DNA from: Clostridia bacterium
Lineage (GTDB): Bacteria; Bacillota; Clostridia; Oscillospirales; CAG-272
DNA length: 64,000 bases
Assembly: GCA_017462545.1 (NCBI GenBank)
Contig: JAFTQX010000001.1
Location: 2,380 to 66,379, forward strand
Direction: 5' to 3'
The notes below the pieces were generated by a model. That model was not told where the DNA came from, made no database searches, and saw only the letters and a program-made list of their open reading frames with translations. The number at the start of each line of letters is the position of its first letter. Positions within the stretch are counted from its first letter, which is position 1. Below are positions 4,769-54,524 of the stretch, piece after piece. The position numbers and the translations under genes are program-made.

Positions 4769-5845
4769 ATGAGCCAAGCCTTTCAGCGAAACGGCGCAGC
4801 CTACATCCGCGAGCAGCTTCGCGCGGCACGCGAGGGCGGTAAAAGCGAAGTCGTGATTTCCGGCAATTACGAGGTCGAGGATACGATCCTCCTCCCCTCA
4901 GACACCACGCTGATCCTGTCGGATTGCCACCTGCGCATGAGGGACGGCACCTTCTGCCAGATGTTCCGCAACGAGCACAGCACCCCCGGTGAGCGTCACG
5001 ATGGCAAGTGCCCCGATCGCAACATTCGTCTGCTTGGCCGCGGGCGTGCCATTTTAGACGGCGGCGAGTACAACGGCCTTTCCGAAAAGACGAGCGGCAA
5101 GGACGGTATGCCGTACATTGCGCAAAACAACATGGTTCTTTTCTGTAATGTAGAGGGCTTTGAGATCGGCGGTCTTTCAATACGAAACCAACGTTGGTGG
5201 GCACTCAACCACTATTTCTGCCGCCACGGCCATCTGCACGATCTGGAATTTATCTCCGACTACACCCGCATAGATGAAAACGGCAAGCGCGTGGTCGGGC
5301 TTGACCGCTCGCTCTACACGCAGACCTATATCAAAAACTCGGATGGCATTGACCTGCGCGCGGGCTGCCACGATATTCTTATTGAGAACATCACCGGCTT
5401 CACCGAGGATGACACTGTTGCCCTGACCGGTCTCTCTGGCAAGGGCGAGCGCGAGCTGTATCGCGCAGAGGGGCTTTCTACCGATATATACAATGTCATC
5501 ATCCGCAACATCCGCTCGGCGGCCTACTGCACGCAGGTGCGCCTTCTCAACCAAGGCGGCGTGCGGCTGTATAACATTCTTGTTGACGGCGTGACCGACG
5601 CCTCGCAGAACTGCCCTTACTATGTTGGGCGCGGCGTGGCGGGTGTGCGTATCGGTGACCTGCATCTATACGGGGAGCGGCACAGCACGAAGGACGAGAC
5701 CTTCAACATTGTGGTGCGTAATGTTTTTTCCCGCGCGGAGACCGCGCTGCGTCTGGCGGGTGCCATGACCGATTGCCATTTTGACGGCATTTACGGCTTT
5801 GACGGTTGCCCCTGCATCATTGATGACCAAACCATCAAGGAATAA
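4769..5845 (+). CDS. Right-handed beta-helix protein, glycoside hydrolase family 28-like (no signal peptide)
   Basis: Start moved to ATG 4769 (SD AAAGGAGA). NSDGIDL...ILIENITGFTEDDTVAL resembles the GH28 NTDGxD / GDDC blocks. 358 aa. Confidence 0.6.
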   Translation: MSQAFQRNGAAYIREQLRAAREGGKSEVVISGNYEVEDTILLPSDTTLILSDCHLRMRDGTFCQMFRNEHSTPGERHDGKCPDRNIRLLGRGRAILDGGEYNGLSEKTSGKDGMPYIAQNNMVLFCNVEGFEIGGLSIRNQRWWALNHYFCRHGHLHDLEFISDYTRIDENGKRVVGLDRSLYTQTYIKNSDGIDLRAGCHDILIENITGFTEDDTVALTGLSGKGERELYRAEGLSTDIYNVIIRNIRSAAYCTQVRLLNQGGVRLYNILVDGVTDASQNCPYYVGRGVAGVRIGDLHLYGERHSTKDETFNIVVRNVFSRAETALRLAGAMTDCHFDGIYGFDGCPCIIDDQTIKE

Positions 5846-6420: not shown

Positions 6421-7595
6421 ATTTTTCAAGATTGACGAGCTTTTTGCACCATCTGGTCGATGAGGTGCATATTCCTTCTGTTTGTATGCAGGTATACAAG
6501 GAGGGCGTACAGGTGTACAGCCACTCCTACGGCACACCGGAGGGGATGGAGGTCACGCCGGACACCACCTACAACCTCTACTCGGTTTCCAAGGTCATTA
6601 CTTGTACAGCCGCTTTGCAGCTGCTGGAGCAAGGAAAATACCTGCTCACAGACCCGCTGTATGACTATTTTCCGCAATTTCGCGAGATGTATGTCAAGTG
6701 CGGTGGGGGCGAGGATGTTGGCAATCGTGTCGCGCAGGGGGAGCGCATTTTGTATGAGGATGGCAAGACTGAGGTCGTGCCTGCCAAAAATCCCATCCTC
6801 ATTCGCGATCTGTTCAATATGTCGGCCGGCTTTAACTATAACTATAACGCTCCCGCTTTTCAAAAGATCCTTGCCGAGACGGGCGGCAGGTTTCCCACCC
6901 TGCGAATTGCCGACGCGCTGGCGGCCGAGCCGCTGGAATATGAGCCCGGCACGCGTTGGGGGTATAGCCTTGCCCACGACATGATCGGCGCGCTGATCGA
7001 AAGGATCAGCGGCATGTCATTTGGCGAATATCTGCAAAAGAACATTTTTGATCCGCTCGGGATGAAGAGTTTTACCTTCCACCGCAACGAGTCGGTGTAT
7101 GCCAATATGGCACCGCAGTATCTCTATAACTACGAGACCAAGCATCCCGAGCTTGGCACAAAGGAAAACCCCATGCTGATCGGTGAGGGGTTTGAAAGTG
7201 GCGGCGCGGGTCTTGTCGGCAGCGTGGCCGATTACGCCAAGTTTGCCAATGCGATGTCTCTCTTTGGTACGTCACCGCAGGGCGTGCGCATCCTATCGCG
7301 CGCAACGATCGATCTGATGCGTACGAATTTCCTGACGGCGGAAATGGCGCCGTATTTCAACTGGGAGCAGTTTGTTGGCTACGGCTACGGCCTTGGCGTG
7401 CGTACCCACGTCAGCCACGCAAAAAGCGGCGGTCTTTCCCCGCTTGGTGAATTCGGCTGGGGCGGCGCAGCCGGCGCATACGTGCTCATTGACCCGGATA
7501 ACCGCGTGGCCGCCGTTTACGGGCAGCACATGCGCAACAACCTGGAGCCATATGTGCATCCCCGCTTGCGGAATATCGTGTATGGGTGCTTGTGA
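6417..7595 (+). CDS. Serine hydrolase, beta-lactamase (class C/esterase) fold
   Basis: 392 aa with SxxK motif YSVSKVITCTAAL near the N-terminus. No signal peptide. Confidence 0.8.
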   Translation: MNFSRLTSFLHHLVDEVHIPSVCMQVYKEGVQVYSHSYGTPEGMEVTPDTTYNLYSVSKVITCTAALQLLEQGKYLLTDPLYDYFPQFREMYVKCGGGEDVGNRVAQGERILYEDGKTEVVPAKNPILIRDLFNMSAGFNYNYNAPAFQKILAETGGRFPTLRIADALAAEPLEYEPGTRWGYSLAHDMIGALIERISGMSFGEYLQKNIFDPLGMKSFTFHRNESVYANMAPQYLYNYETKHPELGTKENPMLIGEGFESGGAGLVGSVADYAKFANAMSLFGTSPQGVRILSRATIDLMRTNFLTAEMAPYFNWEQFVGYGYGLGVRTHVSHAKSGGLSPLGEFGWGGAAGAYVLIDPDNRVAAVYGQHMRNNLEPYVHPRLRNIVYGCL

Positions 7596-7606
7596 GACGG
7601 GGGAAG

Positions 7607-7667
7607 GCGAGAGGCTTTTTGAAAAAGCCCCTCGCGCTCCGCAAAAAAATTTACGGAATAAAAGGTT
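7607..7667 (+). repeat. Palindromic gene-3'-end element, type 2, copy D
   Basis: GCGAGAGGCTTTTTGAAAAAGCCCCTCGC (7607-7635) followed by GCTCCGCAAAAAAATTTACGGAATAAAAGG. It starts 12 nt after the stop at 7595. A near-copy in reverse lies at 57263-57317. Confidence 0.7.
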
Positions 7668-7715
7668 TTATCGCCGCAGCAATGAAACGAAAAATGTCGT
7701 TCACTTTCTGCCTCG

Positions 7716-7755
7716 ACCAAACAAGGCTTGCAAAAGGATGAAAGCCTTGTTTGGT
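7716..7755 (+). terminator. Hairpin (14-bp stem ACCAAACAAGGCTT / AAGCCTTGTTTGGT)
   Basis: 12-nt loop followed by TCTTT. The stem shares ACAAGGCTTGCAA with the hairpin at 274-315. Confidence 0.45.
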
Positions 7756-7785
7756 TCTTTAGAGGCAGCCATAAGAGCGTGGTGT

Positions 7786-7820
7786 AAACAGCCGATACGG
7801 GAAATCCGTATCGGCTGTTT
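7786..7820 (+). terminator. Intrinsic terminator-like hairpin
   Basis: 15-bp perfect stem AAACAGCCGATACGG / CCGTATCGGCTGTTT with loop GAAAT. Confidence 0.55.
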
Positions 7821-7846
7821 CTTGTCGGGCGCGCGCCCGATTTCTC

Positions 7847-7876
7847 TTGACAAGCAACCGCCGGTCATGATATAAT
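7847..7876 (+). promoter_or_regulatory. Sigma-A-type promoter for the HAD hydrolase operon
   Basis: TTGACA 7847-7852, 18-nt spacer, extended -10 TGaTATAAT (7868-7876). Confidence 0.55.
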
Positions 7877-7904
7877 AAAAGGGAAAAAGAAAGGCGGTGA
7901 CGCC

Positions 7905-8609
7905 ATGATCAAGACCATTTTGTGGGATATTGACGGCACGATTCTTGATTTTCTCGCGGCAGAAAAGGTAGCCATCCGTTCTCTGTTTGCCGAGCTTTCT
8001 CTCGGTGAATGCACCGACGAGATGATCTCGCGCTATTCCGCTATCAATAAAACATACTGGCGCATGCTGGAAGAGGGAAGGATGACTAAGCCCGAGATTC
8101 TCATTGGCCGCTTTCACGAGTTTTTTGAGGGGGAGGGCATCAAGACCGACGCCGATTATTTTAACAAAACCTATCAGGTGCGCCTTGGTGATACCATTGT
8201 ATTTATTGACCGCGCAGACGAGCTTTTGCGTGAGCTGAAGACGGCGGGGCTGCGGCAGTACGCCGTGACAAACGGCACGCGCGTGGCGCAGCGCAAAAAG
8301 TTGACAAACGCCAATCTGTGGGAGGTCTTTGACGGGGTGTTTATCTCGGATGAGATCGGGACAGAGAAGCCGAGCCGCGAATTTTTTGACCACGTCTTTT
8401 CCGAAATTGGTGACGCGAAACGAGAAGAGACCCTGATCGTGGGTGACTCGCCCTCCAGCGACATGCGTGGCGGCATCGCGGCGGGCATTCGTACCTGCTG
8501 GTACAATCCAAAAGGCGATCAGCTACCTGACGGTATGCGGGTAGATGCGGAAATAACAAATTTATGGGATGTGCGGGCGTTGCTTGCCGCCCTCCCGGAA
8601 CAGGAGTAA
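7905..8609 (+). CDS. HAD-IA family hydrolase (YjjG-like nucleotidase)
   Basis: 234 aa with motif I WDIDGTILDF and a C-terminal GDSPSSDMRGG block. Confidence 0.8.
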   Translation: MIKTILWDIDGTILDFLAAEKVAIRSLFAELSLGECTDEMISRYSAINKTYWRMLEEGRMTKPEILIGRFHEFFEGEGIKTDADYFNKTYQVRLGDTIVFIDRADELLRELKTAGLRQYAVTNGTRVAQRKKLTNANLWEVFDGVFISDEIGTEKPSREFFDHVFSEIGDAKREETLIVGDSPSSDMRGGIAAGIRTCWYNPKGDQLPDGMRVDAEITNLWDVRALLAALPEQE

Positions 8610-9654: not shown

Positions 9655-9659
9655 TATAC

Positions 9660-9687
9660 AAAGAGGCGAGCGATTGCTCGCCTCTTT
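9660..9687 (+). terminator. Intrinsic terminator
   Basis: AAAGAGGCGAGC-GATT-GCTCGCCTCTTT immediately after the stop at 9654. Confidence 0.65.
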
Positions 9688-9690
9688 GTG

Positions 9691-9718: not shown

Positions 9719-9747
9719 ATGACGAAATTAAGGTTGTGTGGTATAAT
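9719..9747 (+). promoter_or_regulatory. Candidate promoter of giant esterase gene 1
   Basis: ATGACG 9719-9724 (4/6 to the -35 consensus), 17-nt spacer, extended -10 TGgTATAAT (9739-9747). Confidence 0.45.
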
Positions 9748-9815: not shown

Positions 9816-12800
9816 ATGAAAAAGCGTATGTTGTCCCTACTCCTTGCGCTTTGCATGCTGCTTACCAGCGTACCGCTCCTGGTACTGCCGGTCGTGGCAA
9901 CAGAGGCAGAGGAGAATAACGTGACCGTTACCTTCCGCACAGCGGACGGTACCGTTGTCTGCACGCGTGAGCACCCTGCAGGCTACATGTGGCTCAAGGC
10001 CCCTACGGAGGCCGAGATGACTGCTGCAGGTCTGACCGAGGACGAGATCGGTGAGATCCTTGGCTGGTTCTACATGGCGCCTGATGGCAAGTATTATGAC
10101 ATCAGCGCGTTTACCAGCATCTATTTGGAGAAGGATATCATCATCTCCCCCTTCACCAAGACATCGACCCTGCACCGTACCGGCAAGCTTTCTTGGCCGC
10201 TGTACACCGTGCCGGCAGATGCCGCTGCGGGTGATATTCTGCCTCTTGATTGTTGGCAGGGCGGCTTTACAATGGGCTACGCCAACCGTAACGATCTGCT
10301 GAACACCTATACCCTGTACGATGAGGTGCAGCTCTATTCGTTGACGGGTACTCATCTGCTACGGTATGCCGAGCAGTGGACAGAGGGTGGCTTATATTTG
10401 CTTGACAGCCAGGGCTTTGTTATGCCGAACCTGACGGATAAGGATAAAAACACCGTCATTGCCTGGAATGCGCTTGTCAGCGGTACAGTCAATATTTCTG
10501 TGGATATTCCCGCGTCGCATGCCCCTGCCTTTATCGTTGTCAAGAACGACAAGATCGTATATCCCGCATCGACCGATGAAGTGACCGTTTCTGCCGATGA
10601 CCGTACCACCTGGGCTGCCAAGACCGATACCTCTACCGCGTGGGATGATAAGGCACTGCTGGAGGCGCTAACCGTGACCGCCGGTGACCAGATCCGCTTT
10701 ATTCTGTCGCGGCGCGACGGCGGTACCAGCACGACCGGCTTCTGGCCTACCATCACCTATACAAGCGATCTCTCCACCCCCACCTTCTCGGATGAGATCC
10801 TGTACGGTGGTACCACCTCTTTTGATAAGAATTTCCCTACATACGATAAGACCAACGATGTGGTCACCTGGAACGGTGGCTGGCAGCTCGTGTACTATCC
10901 CGGCATCAGTGATATCGCAGGCGGCAAGGCCCAGCTTCTCGAAAAGGGCATGAATCTGGATGGTGCCAACAATGCACTCTCTATTTCTGACAACGATGAT
11001 AAGGGGCTTGGTGATGTCAGCGTGCTTGCCGCCGTAACATCGAACAGCGGCTGGGGCGGTAATGATAAGTTTGCTTTTGCTATCAAGAACAACGTGGTAG
11101 CCGGCTACCGCTATATCTCTGACCGGACGGGTACGCTTTCCATTGATTTTACTACCCTCGGCCGTATCGGCACGATGAACGTAAAAGCAGCGGATGTCAG
11201 CTTCGCTATTTACGTGGACGGCGTGAAGGTCTGGCCTGTCAGCACAACAGAGCAGGATGCGGATATCAACGCAAACGGCTGGTATTCGCTTGGCGAACTG
11301 ACGGCAAGTCAGAAAAAGATCGTGACAGACGATGCCAATGCAACCGACGTGGCTGCGCGCCGCGGTATCAAGGTCAACAAGGGCAGCCGCGTAGAGATTC
11401 TGTGTACCAATAGCGGCGGCAGCATTTATGCCGGAGCCGGCCTTACCATGTTTGCCGACCTGACCTACGAAAAGGCGGCTGATTTGGTAACCTCCTTCAA
11501 CGAAAACAAGCCTACCTACGATAAGACCAACGATATCGTCACCTGGAACGGCGGCTGGTCACTCGTTCACTACAACCATGTAGATGCCATTGCCGGCGGC
11601 GAGGCAGACTTCCTCACCAAGGGCATGCATATCAATAATGATAGAGACTCGCTGACGATCCCCGCCAATGCGGGTACCTCGTCAGATAATCCCAGTACCA
11701 TCCTGGCAACGGCCGGCATTTCGGCAAGCTCCTGGTCCTATGGCTCGTATACTTACAGCATCTCGGCCGCAAAGGGACACGTGGGCGGCTACCGCTACAC
11801 AACAGAGGCAACCGGTTTTATCGATATTGATTTCACCAAGCTGGGACACTTCTGTGATATGGCCTCCTCCGACACCATGGTTTACGCGATTTACGTAGAC
11901 GGCCAAAAGGTTTGGCCCACAGGTGACGCTTGGTATGGCCGCGCCGGCGGTAACGGCACGATCGACGTGACCGCGGCCGCGAACGCGACCGATGAGGCCG
12001 CCCGCCGTAACATCTTTGTACGCAAGGGCAGCCGCGTAGAGTTCCTCTGCACCAGCACCGATACCTCCAAAACCATTTGGGGTACCGCCGGCAACCTGAT
12101 GTATGCCGATATTACCATGAACACGGTTGACCCGCAGCTTTCGGTAGCCGGTACGGTAGGCAGCGCCTTTGCCATGAACCTGACGGTTGGCAACCGCGCC
12201 TCCTATAAGGATCTTACCGTGAAGATCAACGGCGAGAAGATCACCCCCGCAAACGGCATCTATACCCTTGCCGGCATTGCCGCCAAGGATATGAAAAAGG
12301 CCATCACCTATGAGGTGACCGGTAAGGTCTACGGTGTAGATGTTACGATCGCCAAGGGCGAGACCACCTTTGCCGATTACCTGACCGCATTGACCAAAAA
12401 CACCGCATTGGCAACCAATATTCGCATGCTGGCACAGGCTACGCTCAGCTACGGCGAGGCTGCTGAAAAGTACTTTACAAATGGTAGCCTGAATGCCACC
12501 GAGCAAGCTCTGATTGCGAACGCACCGAGCACGAACGGCACGATGAACATTGTAAAAAATGCCGATCAAAGCGCGAATAAGTTCGAATTCTACGGCGTCT
12601 CTCTTTTGCTCAATGACGAGATCGATATCAAGCTGTACGTGGATGCCCTGACCGAGCAGGCCTCGCTTGACGGCTATACCATCCGCGTGACGAGCAACAA
12701 GGTAAACGGCAACGGCTGGACTTTGCAGCCGCGTGGAGACGTTAACGACAATTGGCACTTCAAGTCGATTATCAACGGTATCCCCGCTTCGGCATACGGC

Positions 12801-15800
12801 TCTGATCTTTCCATCACCGTGATGGAGGGCGAGACTGCCGTGAGCGACACGCTCGTATACAGCGTAGACGCGTATATTGCCCGTATGTACAGCACCCGCA
12901 CCGATCTGGAAAAGAATCTGCTGCACGCCATTGCTACGATGGGTGATGCCGCAGGCGGCGCGCATATCCATGTATACGGCGAATGGATGCTGGGTGAGGT
13001 AGACGGGGATAACAATCAGACCGAATACCGCATCTGTACCCTGTGCGAGCATAGGGATGAGCGTCTTTGCGAAGAGATTGAGATCGTTTATCAAGACACC
13101 TACACCTTTGCAAGCCCTGTTCTCTCGATCGAGAAGGAGATCGTTACCTCTACCGATCTGCTGACCGGCGCAGCAGACAGCCACGTGCTGATCAAGTCGG
13201 CAGAGAACGAGATCTATGCTACCGGTACCGGCAGCGCGTTGGTCAAGACCGCAGACGGCTACGTTATGGTGACGGTTTCTGCCGCCCCCATCAACATGCT
13301 CTTCCTCTCCGGTCAGTCGAATGCCGAGGGTGCTTCTGCTGCCGGTGCAACCCCCAATGAAAATAATAAGTACGATTATGCGGATTACGGCAAGTACTTC
13401 CTGCGTTCGCCCGATCGCATGGCGTATTACACCTACACCTACCACAGCCTGGATATTACGGCCGAGGAGAGCACCGGTCGTACCCCTGCTTCCTACGTTG
13501 TTAAGTCTCTGAAATGGGGCGATAACACCCGTTACAGCAGCGTTTCGAGCGGCCCCAGCGTGACTACCCTGTGCGATGAAGGCAGTACCTTTGCCTCCGC
13601 CGGTGTCGGTGCCGCGCTGACGGCAGAATGGATCAAGCAGACCGGTGAGCGTGTTTGGCTGGTCAACTCCGCCCACGGCGGTCACCCCATTCAGAACTTC
13701 TTGCCCCTCGGCTCGGAGGGCGTTGGTGATGTGCCTGTAGAGCGCTACAACGACTACGAGCAGGCAGTTGCCGTCTTCGGTCTTGCCATGCAAACGCTGG
13801 AGAATGAGATCAAGGCCGGCCACTTTACGCTCAGCCACATGGCCTTCTACTGGTTCCAGGGTGAGAGCGACAGCTCCTCGAACGACCTCTACTACCTTGA
13901 GCAGTTTGATCGTGTATACAGCGAGCTGCAGAAGGATGTACAGCTTGACGGTAAGAGCTTCGACTTCGGCGGTCTGTTTACCCTGCGCTCCTGCAAGGAT
14001 AACAGCGGCAACTCCGAGGCCGAGCTGTATATGACCGGCCCGCGTATCGCGCAGTATGAGATCGGCGCGGATAACAGCACCGAGAACGCCTACTCCAATG
14101 TGTATGTTGTTACCAATGCAACCGAGCAATGGACCTCTACCGATGCGGATGTCAAGCAGTATTTCTTGGATATCTACGGCTCGGAGGAGAACTTTAAGTC
14201 CATCTTCGGCTACGATATCCCCGATACCCGCGCCATGATGCACCCCAACATTCACTACGCGATCTACGGTCAGAATGAGATGGGTATTGATGCGGCCAGA
14301 AACTCGCTGCTGATCATGAATCAGCTTGGTCTTACCAACTACGATCTTTCCTATGCCGTGCAGGATGCCAAGACCGAGATCCGCCTGCTGAACGTGGACG
14401 GTTATACCGATCTCACCGAGATCTCGATTGACGTGACCAAGAATGTTGGCTACGTCATTCCGCAGATCACCCCGATCTACCGTGTGGCACAGGGTGTGAC
14501 GCTGGTCTCCGAGACCGACGGTTACGTATTTGACCAGTTCCGCGTGGGCGTAGATAAGACCTATGAGGGCAACCTGGCAGACCAGATCACCTTCTCGGTT
14601 TACCTCGGCGGCGTTTGGCTGCAGCGCTACGACATGCCCATCAAGATCGTTTCCTCCATCCTGCTGGATAGCGACGTGACCTACGCGCAGTACGGCGGCG
14701 ACCTGGCCGAGAACCCGGAAAGAGAGACCAAGATCTACTCTGAGGGCAGTTGGGCTCGCGGCTGGATCGATTATGCCGATGGCTCGCTTCACCTCTTTGA
14801 TTACTACAATACCGAAAACGGCTGGTACTATTCGACCGGTGACGTGCTGTGGGGCAACCCCTTCCACGGCGCGTATTCCTCGCAGGGGCTGGCTCTGAGC
14901 GGTGCAGCCGGTAGCGGCGCGGCGGTATATTGGACTGCTGAGATCGGTGGCACGGTCACTCCCTTCTTTGACAACCTCGACACCAACCTGGGTGACGTCA
15001 ATATTGCGATCATGGTCAACGGTTATGTGGTATGGCCGGAGACGGCATCTCGCCTGAACTACGACGAGCACAGTGGTTGGTATCACGCCTATAATGGCGA
15101 CGCCGAGGGCGAGACCAAGACAACGACGGCCACCATCAACGAGGCCCTTGCCGATTGTAAGATCAAGGTCAACGCAGGAGATGAGATCGCCTTTGTGTTT
15201 GAACGTGTATCCAGCGTGTGCAATATGACGGCATTGCCCGGCCTGCAGTACCTGACCGGCGAGGTGACCGATGCGATCACCGTTCCCACCACCCCCTATT
15301 CTGCGCCTGTAGAGACGGTTACCTTTACCACAAGCGGCTTTGACCCTGTCAATAATACCACCCCGTGGGATTTCGGCTATCTGACCTACGCCACCAACAC
15401 CTTCAAGGAGTTTACCGTTATAGATGGCAACGGTTGGCTGCATGAGGAAGGCGAGAGCATGTGGGATAGTGATTGGCACGGTGCATTTTGGCAGAGCAGC
15501 TCGTATTCGATAGCTGTCAGCGGAAATAAAGGTGAGGACGCTGCCATTCGCTACACCGTGGAGAAGGACGGCATCATCGTGCCGCAGCTTGGAACATTGA
15601 GCGGAACGGGCACGGATACGTATTTTGCCATTTATGTCAGAAAGGCGAACGGCAATTATGTGCCTGTATTCCCGAGTACCGATACCGGTATCGACGGGAA
15701 TGGCTGGTACACGATCTATGATGGAACAGGCGAGGGAGAAACGGCTACCACCGCTGCGATGATGAATATCCTGTTGGATGACATCAGCATTGAGGTAGAG

Positions 15801-15899
15801 GCCGGTGATGAAATTCTGTTCCTCTTTGCAAAGCTGGGCAACCAGAATACCTACATCAAGTGCTATCCCTCCATCGTTTATACCACCATAAAGGAGTGA
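9816..15899 (+). CDS. Giant secreted multi-repeat protein with an internal sialate-O-acetylesterase (SASA/GQSN)-type domain
   Basis: 2027 aa. Sec signal MKKRMLSLLLALCMLLTSVPLLVLPVVATEAEE; SD GAGAGGA 7 nt upstream. Five unassigned ~90-aa modules (core FAIYVDGxKVWP) at ~10450-10720, 11095-11410, 11780-12055, 14915-15205 and 15538-15830. Esterase domain ~13285-14330 (GQSNAEG 13311-13331, WFQGESD 13851-13871). No LPXTG, SLH or dockerin seen. Confidence 0.9.
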   Translation: MKKRMLSLLLALCMLLTSVPLLVLPVVATEAEENNVTVTFRTADGTVVCTREHPAGYMWLKAPTEAEMTAAGLTEDEIGEILGWFYMAPDGKYYDISAFTSIYLEKDIIISPFTKTSTLHRTGKLSWPLYTVPADAAAGDILPLDCWQGGFTMGYANRNDLLNTYTLYDEVQLYSLTGTHLLRYAEQWTEGGLYLLDSQGFVMPNLTDKDKNTVIAWNALVSGTVNISVDIPASHAPAFIVVKNDKIVYPASTDEVTVSADDRTTWAAKTDTSTAWDDKALLEALTVTAGDQIRFILSRRDGGTSTTGFWPTITYTSDLSTPTFSDEILYGGTTSFDKNFPTYDKTNDVVTWNGGWQLVYYPGISDIAGGKAQLLEKGMNLDGANNALSISDNDDKGLGDVSVLAAVTSNSGWGGNDKFAFAIKNNVVAGYRYISDRTGTLSIDFTTLGRIGTMNVKAADVSFAIYVDGVKVWPVSTTEQDADINANGWYSLGELTASQKKIVTDDANATDVAARRGIKVNKGSRVEILCTNSGGSIYAGAGLTMFADLTYEKAADLVTSFNENKPTYDKTNDIVTWNGGWSLVHYNHVDAIAGGEADFLTKGMHINNDRDSLTIPANAGTSSDNPSTILATAGISASSWSYGSYTYSISAAKGHVGGYRYTTEATGFIDIDFTKLGHFCDMASSDTMVYAIYVDGQKVWPTGDAWYGRAGGNGTIDVTAAANATDEAARRNIFVRKGSRVEFLCTSTDTSKTIWGTAGNLMYADITMNTVDPQLSVAGTVGSAFAMNLTVGNRASYKDLTVKINGEKITPANGIYTLAGIAAKDMKKAITYEVTGKVYGVDVTIAKGETTFADYLTALTKNTALATNIRMLAQATLSYGEAAEKYFTNGSLNATEQALIANAPSTNGTMNIVKNADQSANKFEFYGVSLLLNDEIDIKLYVDALTEQASLDGYTIRVTSNKVNGNGWTLQPRGDVNDNWHFKSIINGIPASAYGSDLSITVMEGETAVSDTLVYSVDAYIARMYSTRTDLEKNLLHAIATMGDAAGGAHIHVYGEWMLGEVDGDNNQTEYRICTLCEHRDERLCEEIEIVYQDTYTFASPVLSIEKEIVTSTDLLTGAADSHVLIKSAENEIYATGTGSALVKTADGYVMVTVSAAPINMLFLSGQSNAEGASAAGATPNENNKYDYADYGKYFLRSPDRMAYYTYTYHSLDITAEESTGRTPASYVVKSLKWGDNTRYSSVSSGPSVTTLCDEGSTFASAGVGAALTAEWIKQTGERVWLVNSAHGGHPIQNFLPLGSEGVGDVPVERYNDYEQAVAVFGLAMQTLENEIKAGHFTLSHMAFYWFQGESDSSSNDLYYLEQFDRVYSELQKDVQLDGKSFDFGGLFTLRSCKDNSGNSEAELYMTGPRIAQYEIGADNSTENAYSNVYVVTNATEQWTSTDADVKQYFLDIYGSEENFKSIFGYDIPDTRAMMHPNIHYAIYGQNEMGIDAARNSLLIMNQLGLTNYDLSYAVQDAKTEIRLLNVDGYTDLTEISIDVTKNVGYVIPQITPIYRVAQGVTLVSETDGYVFDQFRVGVDKTYEGNLADQITFSVYLGGVWLQRYDMPIKIVSSILLDSDVTYAQYGGDLAENPERETKIYSEGSWARGWIDYADGSLHLFDYYNTENGWYYSTGDVLWGNPFHGAYSSQGLALSGAAGSGAAVYWTAEIGGTVTPFFDNLDTNLGDVNIAIMVNGYVVWPETASRLNYDEHSGWYHAYNGDAEGETKTTTATINEALADCKIKVNAGDEIAFVFERVSSVCNMTALPGLQYLTGEVTDAITVPTTPYSAPVETVTFTTSGFDPVNNTTPWDFGYLTYATNTFKEFTVIDGNGWLHEEGESMWDSDWHGAFWQSSSYSIAVSGNKGEDAAIRYTVEKDGIIVPQLGTLSGTGTDTYFAIYVRKANGNYVPVFPSTDTGIDGNGWYTIYDGTGEGETATTAAMMNILLDDISIEVEAGDEILFLFAKLGNQNTYIKCYPSIVYTTIKE

Positions 15900-15904
15900 T
15901 CGAT

Positions 15905-16021
15905 ATGAAACCATACGAAACCCCCACATGGCAGCTGATTGCGCTCTCGTCCGACCTGTTGATGGCATCGGATGAGAACGAGCTTGCCATTGATAAGCTT
16001 TCTTCGATCTTTGATTTCTGA
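15905..16021 (+). CDS. 38-aa micro-protein coupled to giant gene 1 (MKPYETPTWQLIALSSDLLMASDENELAIDKLSSIFDF)
   Basis: SD AAGGAG at 15891-15896, ATG 15905, TGA 16019-16021, then a terminator. Residues 17-38 are identical to the ORF at 40134-40250, with 10 synonymous and 0 nonsynonymous differences. Confidence 0.75.
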   Translation: MKPYETPTWQLIALSSDLLMASDENELAIDKLSSIFDF

Positions 16022-16040
16022 TTAGAAAGCAACACAAAAA

Positions 16041-16079
16041 ACAAGCCGATATGGGAAATCCCATATCGGCTTGTTTTTT
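16041..16079. terminator. Bidirectional intrinsic terminator
   Basis: ACAAGCCGATATGGG-AAAT-CCCATATCGGCTTGT with an A-run before and TTTTT after. It lies between the convergent micro-ORF and MFS gene. Confidence 0.8.
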
Positions 16080-16085
16080 GCTTGC

Positions 16086-19913: not shown

Positions 19914-19990
19914 GGAGGCATAGCTCAGTTGGTTAGAGTACTTGCTTGACATGCAAGGGGTCACTGGTTCGAGTCCAGTTGTCTCCACCA
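19914..19990 (+). tRNA. tRNA-Val (anticodon GAC)
   Basis: 77 nt. Acceptor GGAGGCA/TGTCTCC, D-arm GCTCAGTTGGTTAGAGT, anticodon loop TTGACAT, T-arm ACTGGTTCGAGTCCAGT, encoded CCA. Confidence 0.9.
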
Positions 19991-33421: not shown

Positions 33422-33450
33422 ATTATACGCCTACTTTTCACGTTTGTCAA
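33422..33450 (-). promoter_or_regulatory. Promoter of the fur-family/metal exporter operon
   Basis: On the minus strand: TTGACA (33450-33445), 17-nt spacer, TATAAT (33427-33422). Confidence 0.65.
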
Positions 33451-33899: not shown

Positions 33900-33928
33900 T
33901 AGACAATTTTTTACAAAGGGTGTATAAT
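33900..33928 (+). promoter_or_regulatory. Candidate promoter of giant esterase gene 2
   Basis: TAGACA 33900-33905 (5/6), 17-nt spacer, TATAAT 33923-33928. Leaves a ~95-nt AT-rich leader. Confidence 0.5.
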
Positions 33929-34026: not shown

Positions 34027-37000
34027 ATGAAAAAACGCATTCTCTCGTTGATTCTCGTGTTGTGCATGCTGCTGCCGATGGTGCCTACCACCCTCTTCGC
34101 GGCAGAGGCAGAGCCCATCGTGTATCAATATGCCGATGTGTACGGGAATTTTAACAAAACAATCTCCGAGACAGTTGCCAACGAGCAGGGACTTGCCGTT
34201 GACAAATATGAGGAGTGGCTGCGTCAAGCAGGCATTTTCGCGATTGACCAGGGCAATTATGACTGGAAGGTGGGTGACTTTGACCCGACCACCGGTGCCT
34301 TGGATCCCTTTGCGCGTGTGGCCTTTTTTGCCAATGACAATAAGACGACCTATAGGCATGATACTACCTGGGCCGTCACCGAGTCGGCATACCAGAAGAT
34401 GGTTGGCGATTACATGACCAGCTACAAGGCAAACGGTAACAAGTACGGTTCTGCCGACATCTGGGGCGGCTATGCGCTCTGCGGGCAGAACAGTTTTACC
34501 GGTCTGACCGCTTCAGGGAGCGGTGGCAAGTATTCTGCCATTGCCTACACAGTCGAGCAAGATGGTGCCTATACCTTCTCTCTTTCTTCGCTGAATGAGA
34601 CGGGTGGCCATACCTTTGCCATCTTTGTGGGCAGCGAGCCTGTTTGGCCTGCCGGTGCAACCGGAACCAAGACTTCTACCTGGTATGCCACCACGAAGGG
34701 CATGAGCATGAATACCGTTAACGCTGCTATGGCAGAGATGGAGGCGGTGAGCGTGCGGAAGGGGCAGACGATTTCTTTCGTCGTTTCTATCGGCACAAGC
34801 GGCAACCCGATGTACGTAGAGCCTGTCGTTACCCGTGTGGGTGACTATGTAGAAAAGCCGGAGATCTTTAAGTACAGCGATGCTGCCGGCAAGTTTACCA
34901 AAACGATCTCCGAGAGCAAGTGTGGCGCAACCGACGCCAACCTGGAGGACGGTTCTTATCTTGCATGGCTGCAGCAGGAGGGCATCTTTGCTGTGAACCA
35001 GGGCAACGCGCCTTGGAAGATCGGTGAGTTGAATCTGACCACCGGCGAACTCGCTCCTTTCTCCCGCGTAGCCTTCTTTGCGGATGATAATGATGATACT
35101 TCTGCTCACAATACTGCGTGGCTCGTCACCGAGGAGACCTATCAGCGTCTCTTACCCGGTTACATCAGCAGCCTGCAGAAGAACACGGGCGGCTTGTACT
35201 ACGGCAGCTCCAGCATTTGGAATGGCGAAGCCCTTTGCGGTATGAGCAGCTTCTATAAGATGGCATCCTCCTCTGCTACCAAGTATTCTGCCATGCAGTT
35301 TACCGCACCGGCAGACGGTGGCTATGCCTTCTCTTTGGCTACCTATTCCAATACCGATTCTCATTATTTCGCCGTGATGGTTGATAACACGGTGGTCTGG
35401 CCGACCGACGCCAAGGCAGACGATAAAACGACCTGGTACGTGGTTACATCCAGTACTACGGCGGCCGAGATCAATGCCGCGCTGTCCGCACTGCCGCTGC
35501 AGCAGCTTTCTGCCGGTCAGACCGTCTCTTATGTAATTGGTAAAAAAGACAAGTCGGATGCCCGTATTGATCTGGCTCCGGTTGTTTCCTACGTGCCGGA
35601 TGGATACGTGTGCATCAATTTGATCGATGAAACGCTCGGCACCTCCAAGACGGTATATCCCGCAATCGGCTCCTCCCTCAAGCTCCCCTATTATGTGGAC
35701 ATCATCGGTTGGGATACGAACGGTGACGGCGAGGTGGATTACCTCAACGGTGCCACCGTGGTCGTTCCCGCTACCGGCGGTAGCTGGAAGGCCGTTTATC
35801 CGCCCACTACCGTATTCAAGAAGGGTGAGAATCACCCGACGTGGGACGCCGAAAATAATAAGGTCGTTTTCTATGACAACTGGGACATTGGCGTCTACAA
35901 TAAGGCGCTCAACGTGTTTATGCCCGTGTACACCTCCAACGGCACCTTCCTGATCAGCGTAGCGGGCGGCCCGTGGAGCGGCAAGGGCTGTGGTCTTTAC
36001 ATGACCAATGATACAACCTCTCCGCACTACGGTCAGATGGCCGTTACCGGCTCGCTTTCAGAGAATAATTATCGCCACTCTATCCGCTATACCGCGCCCT
36101 ACAGCGGCAAGGTGGAGCTGAGCTGGGAGAGCTTTACCGGTATTCGTGAGGTGAATCCCAATGAGGCGGCCTCCAAGATCATCTTTGGCTTTGCCATTTA
36201 TAAGAATGGCGAAAAGATCTGGCCTACCTCCGAGGATTGGAAAATGTATGAAAGCGAAACCACCTATGATGTTGGTGTAGGCGGATCCTTGGATATCGGC
36301 GCGCTGATGGAGGCCGAGGGCATCTTCCCGATCACGGCTGACGTCAACGAGGGCGATCGCATCGAGTTCCGTACCCTGCAGGGCTCCGGTACGGTTTACA
36401 TGATGAAGTCCTCGCCGATGGTTTCTTATCAGTCGGTTACCACCGATTACTATGAGGATACCGTAGGCGGCAGCTCTTATAACCAGGGCGCCGGTATGTA
36501 CTGTATGGATGTTGATGCCCAGACGGGTAAGGTCATCATGCCGGCAGGCTGGTCCTTTGTCGGCTATAAGAATACCGGCTACGGTGTTGACCCGCTGGTG
36601 CTGGATACGCTGGTTGTCGCTTGTGAAGCAGGCACAGCATATACCTACGAGGAAGGCGTGGATATTTATAGCAGATGGGGCGACTCCTGGATCGTAGCTG
36701 CCTCCCGCGTAGGGAAACCCGCCGGTGGTCGTGGCGGTTATCCGGCGATCAACTGGGTGAGCGGTGTAGATGCCCGTTGGGATTACTGGGGCGGTCGCGG
36801 TTGTGTGGTGTCTAACAGCACCTACGATGCCGGCTATCAGTACACCGTTTCAAAGACCGGTTACGTCAATATTTCGATCGATAAGCTGGAGACTCGTGGT
36901 AGCCAAAACCGCTATGCCGCCATCTTTGTAGACGGCGTGATGGTATGGCCTACCGCTGGCGGCAGCTATACAAATAGTGCCGATTGGTGCAACCTGCAGA

Positions 37001-40000
37001 CCTATAAGACGGCAGGCAACACAAGCCGTGAGGATATTGCCCCCAAGCTGGGCGACCTCAGCTATCTGCGTGGCATCTACGTAGAGGCCGGCGATAAGGT
37101 GGAAATGCTCTTCCGTAATACAAGCGAAGGCCATACCGCCCGCGCCTACCTGACGGTAGAGGAGGTTGCGGTTCGTGATACCGCCTCCTATGTTGCCATC
37201 AAGGATGGCGTTGCGCGCATGTATCCCGCTTTGGCCGGTACGACCTTTACCGTACCCACCCACATGGCTCTTGACGGCTTTGGCGGTTGGGATGCAGACG
37301 GCAACGGCAAGCCCGATCTTGCCAACGGCGGCACGGTTCTCGTGGGTGCCAAGCCTACCGTGCTGACTCCCGTTTATAACGATGGCAGCGCTGATCGCTT
37401 TGATCAGAATCTCCCCTATACCTATGACGGTACGACCGTTACCGGCTATGATACCACCAACACCAACTGGCAGATCACCAAGGGTGACTGGAATGTCGAT
37501 TTTGTTGCCAACCCTGATACCAAGCTCACACTCAGCGGCCTGCGTGAGATGAGCAAGCTTTCAAGCGGTATCTTCCAGTATGACGGTGAGGGGCTGTGGG
37601 GCGCAAATGGCGGCGGTATGTATTCTTATCGTAAGTTTGCCGTGCGCGGCTCTGATTCCAAGATCGCCGTTGGTGCCACCTATGTAGCCCCCTACAGCGG
37701 CGTGGTCGACCTCGATTATACCAATGTTGCCGGCCGTTGGGAGATCAATGCCAATGACGGACACGAATATGTGACCGTTGACGGCGTGAAGTATTATGCC
37801 TATTACACAGCCAAGACCGATACGTCTACTGATTATTATTACTTTAAGGATAGAGTAGCGTATTCCCGTACCTTGTCTGAGGGCGGTGCGTACTATGCTT
37901 ATGACGGTACCACCATGACCGAAAAGACTGCCACCGCAGCCGATGCCGGTACAAAGAATGAAGTTTACATGTCTTATCAAACTGGTGCTTACTTTGCCAT
38001 CGTGCTCAACGGTGAGGTGATCTGGCCCTCAAACGGCAAGCCCTTCCACTATCAGAGTGATGACAAGAACAGCCCGTTCAGCCAGTCTGGCGGTGATGAT
38101 ACTGCCCTTGCCAAGATGCGTGCCTATGAGGCGTTCCCCACCAACCTGTATGTCAAGGCAGGGGATAAGATCTCCTTTGTTGCGACTCGCGATCACTGGC
38201 TCTCCAACATGGTATATATGGATCCCGTTGTTACCTATACGGCTGTGTATGAAAAGGTAGAGACCTCTGCCTCTGTCAGCCTTGGGGATAAGTTTGCGGT
38301 TGACTTCATCGCAAGCAATCGTGATCCTCGCGCTACCAAATACGGCGTGGAGATCATCTCCGGTATCTCGGAGGGCATCGTTGCCAAGAACCTTGATGCC
38401 GAGATCACCTACCGTCCCTATCAGATCATTGATGGCACGACCATCTATTTCGCAGAAAAGACCACCAGCCTTGCCGCGATCCTTTCCCTGTATGCCAACG
38501 ATACCACCGGTATAGTTACGGCAGACCAAAAGGCACTGGCCGAGGCACTGCTCCGCTATGGCGCAACGGCTGACAGCTACTTCAACGGGACACCTCTCTC
38601 CGCTGAGGATCTGGCAGCTCTTGCCGGTGTATCGGTGGATACCAGCAAGGAGGCGCAGGAGGTTGGTGCAACGCTTGACCCGAGCGTGACCGAGCGTACC
38701 TATGAGATGACGGCTGTTAAGCTGCTGCTGGAGGACGCCGTTGAGATCAAGGTCTTCTTTAAGGCGCTTTCGGGCGAGGCAGTTACTGATCTTTCGAGCT
38801 TCAAGCTGCTCGTTGCCAACGAATACGGCGTGACCAAGGCACTGGTTGATAGTGGCTTTGTCTACCGTGCGGGCACGGGTGAAAAGGAGATTGGCGCCAG
38901 CTTCTCTGTCCCCGCTACCGAATATAACGAGACACTGTACATCACCCTGCTTTCGGGTAACGCCATGGTCAGCGAGACGCGCACATACAGCGTCAAGACC
39001 TACATTGCCCGTAAATTTGGAACCGAAGAGGGAACCATGGATAACATTCTTCGCGCCATTACCGATGTGGCGAACAAGGCAAGCAAGATTCGCACGCAGA
39101 TTGTCGCTGCTACCGATACCACGACCTATAAGTACTGCGGCACCTGGGAGCCGAGCGGCACGAGCATGATCTCGCATTGGAACGAGTCTTACGTGGAGGT
39201 AGACTTCTATGGCACGAGTGTCACGCCCGTGTTTGGGAAGTCTTCGCCCATCAAGTATTCGATCGATGGCGGCAGCTACACCTCCACTACCGCAAACGGT
39301 GAATTGACCATCACGGCAGCGACCGATGGCAAGCACACCCTGCGCATCAAGACGCAGGGGCGCGGCAGTAACGTCTATTTTGCCGGTGTCAAGACCGAAT
39401 CCAAGCTGCTGCTCTCCCGTACAGCAGAGAAGGAGCATTATATCCACTTTATCGGTGACTCGATCTCGGATGATGGCAACAGCTTCTCTCGCCGCGTGGG
39501 CGATGTTCTCGGTTGGGACTACGCCACCACCGCCGTTGCCGGCATGGCGCTGGAGACCAACTACGGCTATTGGAAGAACAATAACCCTGCCATGTACGCA
39601 GAGCTGGGTATTAATGTCGGTATGGAGGATGCCTTCTTCAAGTACGGTCACCCGACCGATTCTTGGACCGGTGAAACAAGAGCGAAGTACCTCAACTACT
39701 ATACCGATTCCTCTCTCAACAATACCTACGAGACAGGCTATGCGCCGGATATCGTCTTTATCTTCCTTGGCACGAATGATGAGCTGGGTAAGGATACCGA
39801 TGCAACCCGCTTCACCGAGGCGTATGTGCAGTTTGTAGAAAATATTCTGGCCGTTTACGGTGCGGATACCGAGATCTGGGCATTGCAGGCACTCACCAAC
39901 TCGCAACCTACCATCAATGAAGCGTCCCCGCGTTTCACCTGCATCCGTGCCGCCGCAAACGCGCTCAAGGCCAAGTATGGTGATCAGATCAACTTCATTG

Positions 40001-40137: not shown

Positions 40138-40250
40138 TGACCTACGAAGCACCGCTTTGTGAGATTCTCATTTTCCCCGCAGACCTTCTGATGGCCTCGG
40201 ATGAAAATGAGCTGGCTATTGATAAGCTCTCCTCTATCTTTGATTTCTAA
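40134..40250 (+). CDS. 38-aa micro-protein coupled to giant gene 2 (MMTYEAPLCEILIFPADLLMASDENELAIDKLSSIFDF)
   Basis: ATG 40134 overlaps the TGA of the giant gene (ATGA), with SD GGAAGGAGGAGG just upstream. TAA at 40248-40250, then a terminator. Paralog of 15905-16021. Confidence 0.75.
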   Translation: MMTYEAPLCEILIFPADLLMASDENELAIDKLSSIFDF

Positions 40251-40260
40251 AGATAACGAA

Positions 40261-40288
40261 AGGCCGCCCGAATCGGGCGGCCTTTTTA
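40261..40288. terminator. Bidirectional intrinsic terminator
   Basis: AGGCCGCCCG-AAT-CGGGCGGCCT followed by TTTTT, between the convergent micro-ORF and GH35 gene. Confidence 0.8.
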
Positions 40289-53366: not shown

Positions 53367-54101
53367 TTACAGCAGCTCCATGGCGGTGCGCGCAAGGGCA
53401 TCCCCGCTGCTTGCGTGTTCTGTCATGGTTCTTCCTTTCGTCAGCTTTTTATAGACCTCGTAATAACGCAGACCAAACTCATAGAGAGAGGGAGAATCAA
53501 AGTGCAGCGCATCACCGCGGTCGGTAAGCCCTGTTGCCGGGACAAAGCCGTAGCGTGCATCCTCGGCGGCAATTTGTTCCAAGGTGCGGTTGATCACACC
53601 GGTTGGTTCGCCGTAGGTCAAAAAATCACCAAGACCGCCTAACAAAAACGGCACATCCTGCAGCCCCAGCGCACCGCGTAGTGCCTCTGCCATGCAGAGA
53701 AACCGTTCACGGTAGGTCGAGGCCAGGGGCTCACGGCAGTCCGCCTCGCCCTGATGCCATAAAATGCCCACGATCTCGGCGCTGCGCTGTGCAAGACGCG
53801 CGCAGTTGACGGCGTTTTCAAACAGCTCGCCCCCCTCTTGCCATTGGTCAAGCGAGGTGCCGCCGTCCGAGCAGGGAATCAGCCCCACATCGCAGCCATG
53901 CTCGGCGGCATACCGCTCGGCAAAGCTCTCGGCAAGGCAAACGCCGGCAAACGATCTGTCCGGCACCACAGGGCGGAACATTTGTTGCCATCTGCCGTTG
54001 CGCTGCATGTAGATGTGCTCGGTGTTGATGTCCTTGGCATCGGCCAGATAGCCGCGCCCCGACATATTGGACTGCCCGATCATGAGAAACGCGTGGATCA
54101 T
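53367..54101 (-). CDS. Sialate O-acetylesterase (SASA/GQSN) family esterase, cytoplasmic
   Basis: Start moved to ATG 54101 (MIHAFLMIGQSNMSGRG). 244 aa with GQSN and WHQGEAD blocks. Confidence 0.8.
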   Translation of the reverse strand: MIHAFLMIGQSNMSGRGYLADAKDINTEHIYMQRNGRWQQMFRPVVPDRSFAGVCLAESFAERYAAEHGCDVGLIPCSDGGTSLDQWQEGGELFENAVNCARLAQRSAEIVGILWHQGEADCREPLASTYRERFLCMAEALRGALGLQDVPFLLGGLGDFLTYGEPTGVINRTLEQIAAEDARYGFVPATGLTDRGDALHFDSPSLYEFGLRYYEVYKKLTKGRTMTEHASSGDALARTAMELL

Positions 54102-54132
54102 GGTAGAGCTCCTTCCCCCTTGAGATGAGAAC

Positions 54133-54161
54133 AGTATAGCATATAAAAGGGAAATAAGCAA
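54133..54161 (-). promoter_or_regulatory. Promoter of the esterase-ygjV operon
   Basis: On the minus strand: TTGCTT (54161-54156), 17-nt spacer, extended -10 TGcTATACT (-10 at 54138-54133). Confidence 0.55.
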
Positions 54162-54216
54162 GGGGGAAAAAGGATAACAAAGCGAGATTTTTGACCACTT
54201 GCTCCTGCAAGGCACG

Positions 54217-54400: not shown

Positions 54401-54524
54401 GCTTGCGCGGTGCGCCTATATAGCGCAACGCTTATTATAGCAGAGATATATGAACAAAAAATGTATATATCGTGAAAACAATATGAACGACTGCGTTTGG
54501 GGCAGGGAAAAAGAGAAAAAGATA

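Follow-up and report, generated by a model that had tools for sequence, protein, structure and literature searches.

A multi-copy family of small acidic peptides encoded directly behind giant secreted esterase genes of uncultured Clostridia

Introduction

The precursors of Gram-positive peptide pheromones (ComC, AgrD, SHP/XIP, PapR) carry the active signal at the C-terminus and possess a conserved N-terminal part for export or processing, and exo-enzyme regulons are typical targets of quorum sensing. Lasso peptide precursors have a canonical threonine at the penultimate position of the leader, and their genes normally adjoin the corresponding cluster. Prochlorosins (ProcA/ProcM), in turn, are made from scattered precursors by an unlinked enzyme, the leaders being nearly identical and the cores hypervariable. 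The private escorts of exported proteins, such as the redox enzyme maturation proteins of the Tat pathway (e.g. TorD) and the chaperones of type III secretion systems, are folded, acidic proteins of 100-200 residues which lack an export signal, serve one specific cargo and are encoded in its operon. Here we describe two 38-codon open reading frames (micro-ORF 1 and micro-ORF 2), each situated directly behind the gene of a giant secreted esterase in a 64-kb stretch of contig JAFTQX010000001.1 of a Clostridia bacterium (assembly GCA_017462545.1); the whole of this stretch is referred to as the window. The peptides belong to an unannotated, multi-copy family, and may represent leader-core precursors that are made together with each exo-enzyme.

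As with pheromone precursors, the members of this family are small and their putative active part varies between lineages; however, they are strongly acidic, have neither a double-glycine motif, nor a Sec signal, nor an SHP-like hydrophobic body, and no receptor, AgrB or ABC transporter was found adjacent to their genes. Private escorts resemble them in the location within the cargo operon, in acidity and in the absence of an export signal, but the peptide of the window is only 38 residues long, non-globular, and its conserved half is the same for unrelated cargoes. With the prochlorosin-type systems the family shares precursor genes scattered far from any maturase and an N-terminal module common to all copies. 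The Firmicutes lasso precursors (LasA/PadeA; PMC7533575, PMC5067487) are likewise ∼40 residues long and free of Cys, begin with M-K-x-aromatic-x-x-P-x-h-E-x-L-x-h, and have a small residue at the predicted position +1, Asp at +9 and an acidic core. Yet the peptide genes described here have no B1/B2/C/D genes nearby and no NCBIfam hit, occur with one and the same core at five or more dispersed sites, are linked to giant esterase genes by translational coupling, and include insertion variants in which the ring spacing is broken. Finally, like the conserved genes of ≤50 amino acids catalogued in the human microbiome (10.1101/494179), its members are mainly metagenomic and bear the name 'hypothetical protein'.

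The micro-ORFs and selection on their products

Micro-ORF 1 (15905-16021, plus strand; start ATG 15905, stop TGA 16019-16021) comprises 38 codons and the stop codon, and its translation product is MKPYETPTWQLIALSSDLLMASDENELAIDKLSSIFDF. The Shine-Dalgarno sequence AAGGAG (15891-15896, plus strand) is located 8 nt 5' of the ATG and overlaps the last codons of giant gene 1, and a bidirectional intrinsic terminator with a 20-bp stem (16035-16080) closes the operon 14 nt past the micro-ORF stop. Codons 1-21 (15905-15967, plus strand) specify the leader-like N-terminal module that is found family-wide (M1, Y4, P7, a hydrophobic strand, D17 and M20); codons 22-38 (15968-16018, plus strand) specify SDENELAIDKLSSIFDF, the putative core, which consists of an acidic motif and a lineage-invariant tail. 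Micro-ORF 2 (40134-40250, plus strand; 38 codons followed by TAA 40248-40250) encodes MMTYEAPLCEILIFPADLLMASDENELAIDKLSSIFDF; its ATG at 40134 overlaps the TGA of giant gene 2 (40135-40137) to form ATGA, and is immediately preceded by the Shine-Dalgarno-rich run GGGAAGGAGGAGGA (40120-40133, plus strand). A GC-rich hairpin (12 pairs, nine of them G-C; 40259-40285) and a T run terminate operon 2 (40259-40287). Each copy is the last cistron of a two-gene operon made up of a promoter-like site, a giant gene, a micro-ORF and a terminator, the hairpin of which lies 9-14 nt beyond the stop codon, and these two are the only copies of the peptide gene in the window. Strong ribosome-binding sites are present at every giant/micro-ORF junction. 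The original prediction, made from the sequence of the window alone, had put both 38-codon ORFs at these coordinates, with AAGGAG and the ATG 8 nt further on and a strong terminator behind micro-ORF 1; translation of the stated positions and inspection of the sequence confirmed this reading, and the terminator was placed as given above.

Over codons 17-38 the two copies have identical residues, and all of the 10 differences among the 66 nt are synonymous; codons 2-16, in contrast, contain 12 amino-acid changes. On either side of both ORFs the flanks are unrelated (13-33% identity per 30-nt block), hence the two copies resemble each other only within the ORF. Of the sites in the 66 nt, 14.0 are synonymous and 52.0 non-synonymous, and the chance of ten random changes being synonymous in every case is about (14/66)^10 = 2e-7. 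The same 22-residue identity and the same ten codon pairs had been listed in the original prediction as evidence of selection on the peptide, and both were confirmed. In 10 homologues with available DNA, the proportions of synonymous (pS) and non-synonymous (pN) differences were 0.58 and 0.07, respectively, in the C-terminal half, and 0.67 and 0.30 in the N-terminal half. Synonymous sites are close to saturation, and even so 15 residues do not vary among 22 close homologues. Judging from these comparisons of codons, both micro-ORFs are genuine genes under very strong selection at the protein level. A chance ORF or a repeat conserved as DNA or RNA was rejected because of the unrelated flanks and the synonymous nature of all differences within codons 17-38, and a mobile repeat element because conservation is seen at the protein level only. 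Recent gene conversion was rejected as the origin of the identical cores, given that 10 of the 14 synonymous sites differ; an old conversion may have taken place.

The peptide family and database searches

A word-indexed search of 5.8 billion proteins yielded 23 close homologues, nearly all of exactly 38 residues. The scan of 1.84 billion cluster representatives with a hidden Markov model (HMM) profile gave 27 hits of 31-80 residues apart from two eukaryote-like repeat artefacts (P0025 and P0044), which were rejected as relatives, and a broader profile raised the count to 76. Approximately 100 distinct family sequences are now in hand, their as-called lengths being 31-80 and mostly 37-51 residues. 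Since every true hit falls between 31 and 80 residues, no fused, longer form of the peptide is present, and the notion that a stop codon or a frameshift had severed a C-terminal domain from the giant protein was rejected for want of a fused homologue among the 1.84 billion representatives; the offset between the reading frames of the giant gene and the micro-ORF, which is not constant between loci, also speaks against it. So far the family has been seen only in metagenomic contigs and two metagenome-assembled genomes (MAGs) of uncultured Clostridia; GCA_045543015.1 and GCA_965334415.1 are among the assemblies that carry it. Among 185,579 species-representative genomes, the close subfamily was encountered in one MAG ('Eubacteriales bacterium', GCA_045543015.1), which harbours five copies. 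Where the members are named at all, they are called 'hypothetical protein' only, and of the two peptides of the window, just the product of micro-ORF 2 (P0021) had already been called as a gene in the searched protein collection.

Pfam returned no hits for the peptides of the window and only noise for 35 members, and NCBIfam no hit up to E 10 for the former and only noise for 31 members. The LEPR-XLL domain of NCBIfam was rejected, as just two members match it (E 0.02). The profile search of PDB sequences gave no hits up to E 10, full-text searches found no paper containing the literal peptide strings, keyword searches brought nothing relevant, and scans of Joint Genome Institute metagenome contigs with the degenerate pattern DxLMASDENE and with the family pattern produced no match. 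Neither a function nor a context of such kind is described in the searchable literature. The earlier impressions that the peptide belongs to no named family, and that a module composed of a giant esterase and a micro-protein is undescribed, therefore stand.

Conserved modules and parallel substitutions

Three modules can be distinguished in the peptide. The ∼21 N-terminal residues (M-K-x-Y-x-x-P, a hydrophobic strand and D-h-L-M-x) are conserved across the whole family; they are followed by the acidic motif (S)-D-E-N-E-[L/T]-x-x-D and by a tail which depends on the subfamily and is invariably KLSSIFD[F/L] in the window lineage, the whole 17-mer having the form SDENELAIDKLSSIFD[F/L]. It is the residues past D30 that define the subfamilies (e.g. 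...KLSSIFDF, ...ETPKDYVDGENLVISDIESI and ...VVDTLSDVFVVENIQ). Family-wide, M1, Y4 and P7 are invariant, and D17, M20, S22, D23, E24, N25 and D30 are at least 90% conserved; in the close subfamily, the invariant positions are M1, Y4, P7, S22-L32 and S34-F36. When S22 is numbered +1, position -1 is variable, position -2 is Met in 82 of the 96 unique members, Leu in eight and never Thr, and position +1 is Ser in 92; Asp or Glu is found at core positions 7-9 in 92 of the 96, with Asp at position 9 in 88. In two robust insertion variants, P0037 (29 contigs) and L019b, five extra residues separate the N-terminal module from the DENxxxxD motif. AlphaFold2, supplied with a 51-sequence alignment, predicted no globular fold, the N-terminal half being extended and short helices spanning residues 16-20 and 28-36, at a predicted local distance difference test (pLDDT) score of 75. 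The peptide is strongly acidic and has no hydrophobic signal, no membrane segment and no Cys, the lack of a signal peptide and of a Cys core having been recognised for both window peptides from the outset. An EF-hand/dockerin-like calcium loop, a double-glycine leader, an ssrA tag, an SSB tail and a clamp-binding motif were considered as well and rejected, since they do not seem to fit in spacing or position.

A hxLPxhP motif forms the end of several peptides of distant family members, namely P0048, P0050 and type B. The type B relative is monocistronic and divergent from the module formed by a 768/782-aa protein and a micro-ORF (L019, minus strand, ∼402-240; L023, minus strand, 7371-7231); it keeps the N-terminal module and has the C-terminus ...GTIHLPPVPYR or ...GGLQLPVAPFKKSN. 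The L023 copy is provided with its own perfect promoter (TTGACA-17-TGnTATAAT). In L027, a gene at 5121-5558 (plus strand) overlaps the stop of the distant family member P0089 and encodes a protein of 145 aa that is anchored in the membrane by its N-terminus, has a long disordered linker of acidic character and ends with ...NVIELPFVPIN, again a hxLPxhP motif.

The same C-terminal 17 residues stand behind SASA giants, GDSL/CE2 giants and three unclassified types of partner (1394/1364 aa; 1084 aa; the L010/L020 type), and the giants, their signal peptide aside, have no segment as conserved as the peptide core. Behind the SASA, GDSL, 1394-aa and 1084-aa giants of the window lineage and a related one (lineages A and B), every core ends with ...KLSSIFDF; behind the orthologous giants of the MAG lineage and a fourth one (lineages C and D), every core ends with ...KLGSIFDL, one giant type having A33. 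The substitutions S33G and F38L thus recur in parallel across orthologous paralogue types. The synonymous codons differ among these parallel paralogues (AGC or TCT for S34; CTG or TTA for L38), which argues against recent gene conversion; either the same two replacements would have been fixed repeatedly, or an old conversion would have been followed by drift. In both cases all copies of a genome would have to show one tail to a single shared partner. The pattern points to one such partner per genome, and a single tail per genome argues against recognition of the neighbouring giant by the tail. Giant-specific binding by the N-terminal half was rejected as well, since orthologue pairs merely drift in this part and keep the hydrophobic pattern. 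In addition, the giants have Sec-type signal peptides and the peptide has no export signal, so that the peptide would have to leave the cell by a route of its own in order to form a stable complex with the folded enzyme.

Genomic context

At 14 distinct loci, including those of distant lineages, the peptide gene begins less than 25 nt past the stop of a gene encoding 485-2048 aa or, as in the case of micro-ORF 2, overlaps that stop; outside the window, its start lies 4-22 nt past the stop of a long gene on the same strand. Nearly all of the upstream partners are secreted multidomain enzymes; as a rule, the peptide gene is the final, translationally coupled cistron behind a very large Sec-exported carbohydrate esterase or hydrolase, and a genome has at least five modules of this kind. 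The SASA orthologues of giant gene 1 (L003, L004, L007, L014 and L022; 1806-2048 aa, 76% identical) and the GDSL orthologues of giant gene 2 (L021 and L024; ∼2020-2047 aa), which share the upstream tRNA-SAD/ArsP genes with the window, are joined in the set of upstream partners by proteins of 1394 aa (L001), 1364 aa (L019, where a second module lies behind a 768-aa protein), ∼1540 aa (L020), 1084 aa (L036), >965 aa (L010), 782 aa (L023) and >430 aa (L030), and by a 485-aa GH43 protein without a signal peptide at the called start (L027). The SASA-type orthologue is broken near its 5' end in L004 (3850-4051) and L014 (3850-3961), appearing as a split ORF in one assembly and with an in-frame stop after the signal peptide in the other, and is intact in L007; this interruption could be an assembly error, a pseudogene or a phase variant.

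The peptide gene is also found apart from an intact giant. In L018 (MAG; 7560-7980, plus strand) a copy that is intact, and conserved on several contigs, follows a 105-aa C-terminal remnant of a giant, the unbroken 1084-aa version of the same giant being present in L036 (6808-10062). L033-35 bear a stand-alone copy, which was met on 16 contigs, and a tandem second member of 42 aa, MKRYVAPLCEVLVLTSDVLMASNENELVVDTLSDVFVVENIQ, occurs ∼200 nt past the first micro-ORF in L001 (10316-10444, plus strand) and L002 (1425-1553). The distant relatives are monocistronic, the one in L023 with its own promoter. Conversely, L030 contains a 953-aa protein of the giant family which lacks a peptide gene.

These loci bear directly on the original prediction, in which a link between a large secreted enzyme gene and a micro-ORF had been noted, scoring of its synteny with proteins of >1500 aa suggested, and the micro-protein taken for a dedicated partner of the giant esterases. 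The link recurs at the 14 loci, with partners on both sides of that size, and in this respect the prediction is supported. An adaptor for folding, immunity or anchoring that is cognate to its own giant fits poorly and has partial support at best, as the same tail serves unrelated giants and changes in parallel behind them; the intact stand-alone, tandem and remnant-associated copies count further against it.

The full-length partners with an intact N-terminus have a markedly similar signal peptide, M[KQ]KR[IVM]LSLxLxx[CS]M[LV]L...VP...AEE, which is present at 9816-9905 and 34027-34116 of the window and in L001, L007, L019, L021, L023, L024 and L036. In five of six paralogue comparisons 8-10 of its 12 positions are identical, the L020 partner shows 4-5 of 12, and elsewhere the value is ∼6 of 12. 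Paralogous giants are otherwise ∼25% identical, and this signal peptide is their only strongly conserved segment; it may mark a dedicated targeting route. Repeated modules of the beta-sandwich type are likewise common to the partners, as is a bipartite Ig-like plus helix domain, which in several of them forms the C-terminal end, directly before the micro-ORF. The model of this domain is shallow (pLDDT 63), since the homology search with the domain returned only two proteins, and its Foldseek matches are generic tandem-Ig folds.

Giant genes and other features of the window

A terminator at 9657-9690 precedes the promoter-like site of giant gene 1 (ATGACG-17-TATAAT, with TG; 9719-9747, plus strand), and operon 1 is therefore composed of giant gene 1 and micro-ORF 1. 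The 2027-aa product of giant gene 1 (9816-15899, plus strand; TGA 15897-15899) has a SASA esterase domain at aa 1259-1378 and the bipartite Ig-like plus helix domain at aa 774-1052, besides repeated modules of the beta-sandwich type and the Sec-type signal peptide MKKRMLSLLLALCMLL.... Giant gene 2 (34027-40137, plus strand), preceded by the promoter-like site TAGACA-17-TATAAT (11/12; 33900-33928, plus strand), encodes 2036 aa, or 2045 aa if GTG 34000 is used; its product begins with a signal peptide of the giant-1 type (MKKRILSLILVLCMLL...), contains the bipartite domain as well as repeated modules of the beta-sandwich type, and ends with a CE2-like/GDSL esterase. For the C-terminal part (38023-40134, aa ∼1710-1944), the match is the CE2 domain, an esterase, of endoglucanase E from C. 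thermocellum (CelE; PDB 2wao, E 5e-5), and this part is hence probably a deacetylase module of the acetyl-xylan or glucomannan type.

The neighbouring genes in the window are devoted to housekeeping and sugar metabolism (MFS transporter, DEAD-family helicase, GH35, GH43, sigma-70 factor, Maf, endonuclease III and others). A stand-alone SASA-family esterase of 282 aa (53367-54215, minus strand; Pfam E 3e-45) has no micro-ORF with it. A perfect sigma-70 consensus promoter (TTGACA-17-TATAAT, 12/12; 33422-33450, minus strand) points away from giant gene 2 and is located in the ∼1-kb gap between the ArsP-like gene and giant gene 2, where L024 has a Fur-family regulator. Two antisense shadow ORFs are probably not genes: one of 1460 aa (11682-16064, minus strand) opposite giant gene 1 and micro-ORF 1, and one of 956 aa (54435-57305, minus strand) opposite an 882-aa ORF of the plus strand, the translation of the latter shadow ORF being of low complexity and rich in Ala, Gly, Leu and Arg. 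Two tRNA genes (19914-19987, plus strand; 54327-54400, minus strand) are the sole Rfam matches in the window.

Discussion

We estimate a probability of roughly one in three that the peptide, as its sequence conservation suggests, is a leader-core peptide that is produced along with each exo-enzyme and is processed or exported. That it works like a leader-core precursor is our lead hypothesis; that it is a lasso precursor is unproven. The combination of a conserved N-terminal module and a variable tail, seen throughout the family, fits a leader-core arrangement with one shared partner better than a cognate adaptor. The N-terminal module would serve as the handle by which a machine for processing or export, encoded at another place in the genome, takes hold of the peptide, and the lineage-invariant C-terminal 17-mer would be the active product, acting on one shared partner, be it a receptor, an enzyme or a machine. 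With the peptide gene hard-wired to every giant exo-enzyme operon, the peptide would be made in proportion to exo-enzyme synthesis and could function either as a signal or feedback cue for a 'public-goods' regulon, or as an accessory factor common to these enzymes outside the cell. The fullest form of this proposal, namely a new ribosomal peptide system in which every giant operon delivers the same 17-residue acidic product, matured by unlinked machinery and recognised by one receptor or employed as a common extracellular cofactor, is possible but rather doubtful.

A number of observations weigh against the leader-core hypothesis. No maturase, RiPP (peptide synthesized on ribosomes and modified post-translationally) recognition element (RRE)/PqqD protein, peptidase-ABC exporter or receptor gene was detected by Pfam and NCBIfam scans of the 64-kb window, just as the original prediction had it for maturases and exporters, and the same holds for the genes called up to 10 kb from those loci for which Pfam tables were returned, which were checked for maturases, exporters and receptors. 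A generic RiPP role does not account for the long-term retention of the gene in its place right behind a single family of secreted enzymes, and the strong acidity of the peptide is unlike that of most bacteriocins and pheromones. In contrast to prochlorosins and the classic dispersed RiPPs, it is the core that does not vary within a lineage, and the N-terminal half that drifts (pN 0.30). The five-residue insertion in P0037 and L019b argues against a fixed Ser22-Asp30 macrocycle. As compared with lasso precursors, there is Met at position -2 instead of Thr and two extra residues stand before the predicted cut, and the resemblance to lasso leaders is weak by HMM: the best E value is 0.012 and seven of the eight family hits have E >1. 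In the reciprocal search the lasso leaders remained at noise-level scores, yet nine of 29 were among the ∼33 best non-family hits.

A true lasso or graspetide precursor, cut before Ser22 and closed into a 9-residue Ser22-Asp30 macrocycle with an 8-residue tail by maturases encoded elsewhere, would overlap with the leader-core hypothesis. The leaders of published ruminal Lachnospiraceae/Ruminococcus lasso peptides follow the pattern MKx[W/Y]xxPxhExLxh (PMC7533575 Table 3), which the N-terminal half of the peptide fits, and an HMM built from 29 Firmicutes lasso leaders of the same table ranked family members as the top eight of 9,738 six-frame segments from the window and the fetched loci. The usual core requirement for Gly, Ala, Ser or Cys at position 1 and Asp or Glu at positions 7-9 agrees with the counts given above (Ser in 92/96; Asp/Glu in 92/96), as do the conserved -2 and variable -1 positions, and the tail of the 17-residue core contains bulky Ile and Phe. 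However, a penultimate Thr is found in none of the 96 members, NCBIfam offers no hit, and neither an Asn-synthetase-like cyclase, nor a transglutaminase-like leader peptidase, nor a PqqD-like RRE is encoded in the window or within 10 kb of the annotated loci. As to the penultimate position, an exception with Ile is reported (PMC10368454). P0037 and L019b, too, break the Ser-to-Asp spacing and keep DENxxxxD, and altogether a genuine lasso or graspetide precursor seems quite improbable. Other precursor classes fit no better: no GG motif is in register and no Peptidase_C39/ABC gene is present in the window or annotated flanks, as would be expected of a double-glycine class II bacteriocin, and with regard to AgrD, NCBIfam gave no hit (E up to 10; window peptides and 31 members) and no AgrB-like neighbour was found.

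If the peptide stays in the cytoplasm, it may instead be an intracellular escort or adaptor, which corresponds to the secretion adaptor suggested in the original prediction; it would be produced 1:1 with the giant pre-protein through translational coupling and would link the unfolded giant or its signal peptide to Sec targeting, a chaperone or a protease. Such a role would agree with the position of its start next to or over the stop of a large signal-peptide-bearing gene at the 14 loci, with the absence of its own export signal and a structure that, according to the model, appears to fold only on binding, with the signal peptide as the only strongly conserved segment of the paralogous giants, and with an invariant C-terminus whose parallel substitutions fit a single common machine. 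Set against this are the copies that remain intact alone, in tandem or behind a remnant, and the 953-aa member of the giant family in L030 without a micro-ORF; moreover, one type of signal peptide is paired with different peptide tails (the 768-aa partner in L019 and the 782-aa partner in L023), and the tail therefore does not track the signal peptide. A 38-residue peptide translated after ∼2000 codons would also be an odd chaperone for co-translational targeting, we know of no precedent for an escort of this size, and we regard the explanation as unlikely. The shared bipartite beta-sandwich plus helix domain of all partners, C-terminal in several, brings to mind a different function, that of an accessory subunit or anchoring adaptor outside the cell, which would be exported by an unlinked route and bind to this Ig-like plus helix domain as a dockerin-in-trans-like tether. 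The giants have no recognisable wall or membrane anchor, and in the distant L027 locus the peptide gene is followed by that of a membrane-anchored disordered protein with an extracytoplasmic C-terminal hxLPxhP motif. But the domain, whose low-confidence model (pLDDT 63) matches only generic tandem-Ig folds, is just ∼25-30% identical among paralogues as against an invariant peptide core, and no export signal or exporter was found, which makes a subunit or tether of this kind hard to credit.

A nascent peptide acting in cis, the last 17 residues of which would arrest or pause the ribosome at the 3' end of the operon and thereby affect the terminator or the stability of the giant mRNA, was considered in view of the conservation that reaches as far as the stop codon and the short distance (9-14 nt) from the ORF end to the hairpin in the window copies. 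That distance, however, varies from ∼10 to ∼50 nt across loci, the C-termini of the subfamilies are entirely different, and stand-alone copies with their own promoters exist. Furthermore, the neighbours in the window are convergent, hence nothing downstream needs regulating, and the most widely conserved part of the peptide is the N-terminal module, which by then is outside the exit tunnel. Arrest in cis is accordingly very unlikely indeed.

Small proteins are largely absent from genome annotation, and just one window peptide (P0021) had a previous gene call. In this case, the evidence of function is unusually clean, being based on selection, five close copies in one genome and parallel changes of paralogues, and no described counterpart of one identical peptide per giant secreted esterase operon was found in the searchable literature. 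Should the peptide be an intracellular escort or an extracellular subunit, it would represent a new accessory factor for the export or deployment of 200-kDa enzymes. If, in agreement with the leader-core hypothesis, it is a signal or a RiPP, the family would tie peptide signalling in uncultured gut Clostridia to 'public goods' that degrade glycans, and the rules of precursor mining would be extended beyond cluster-adjacent genes.

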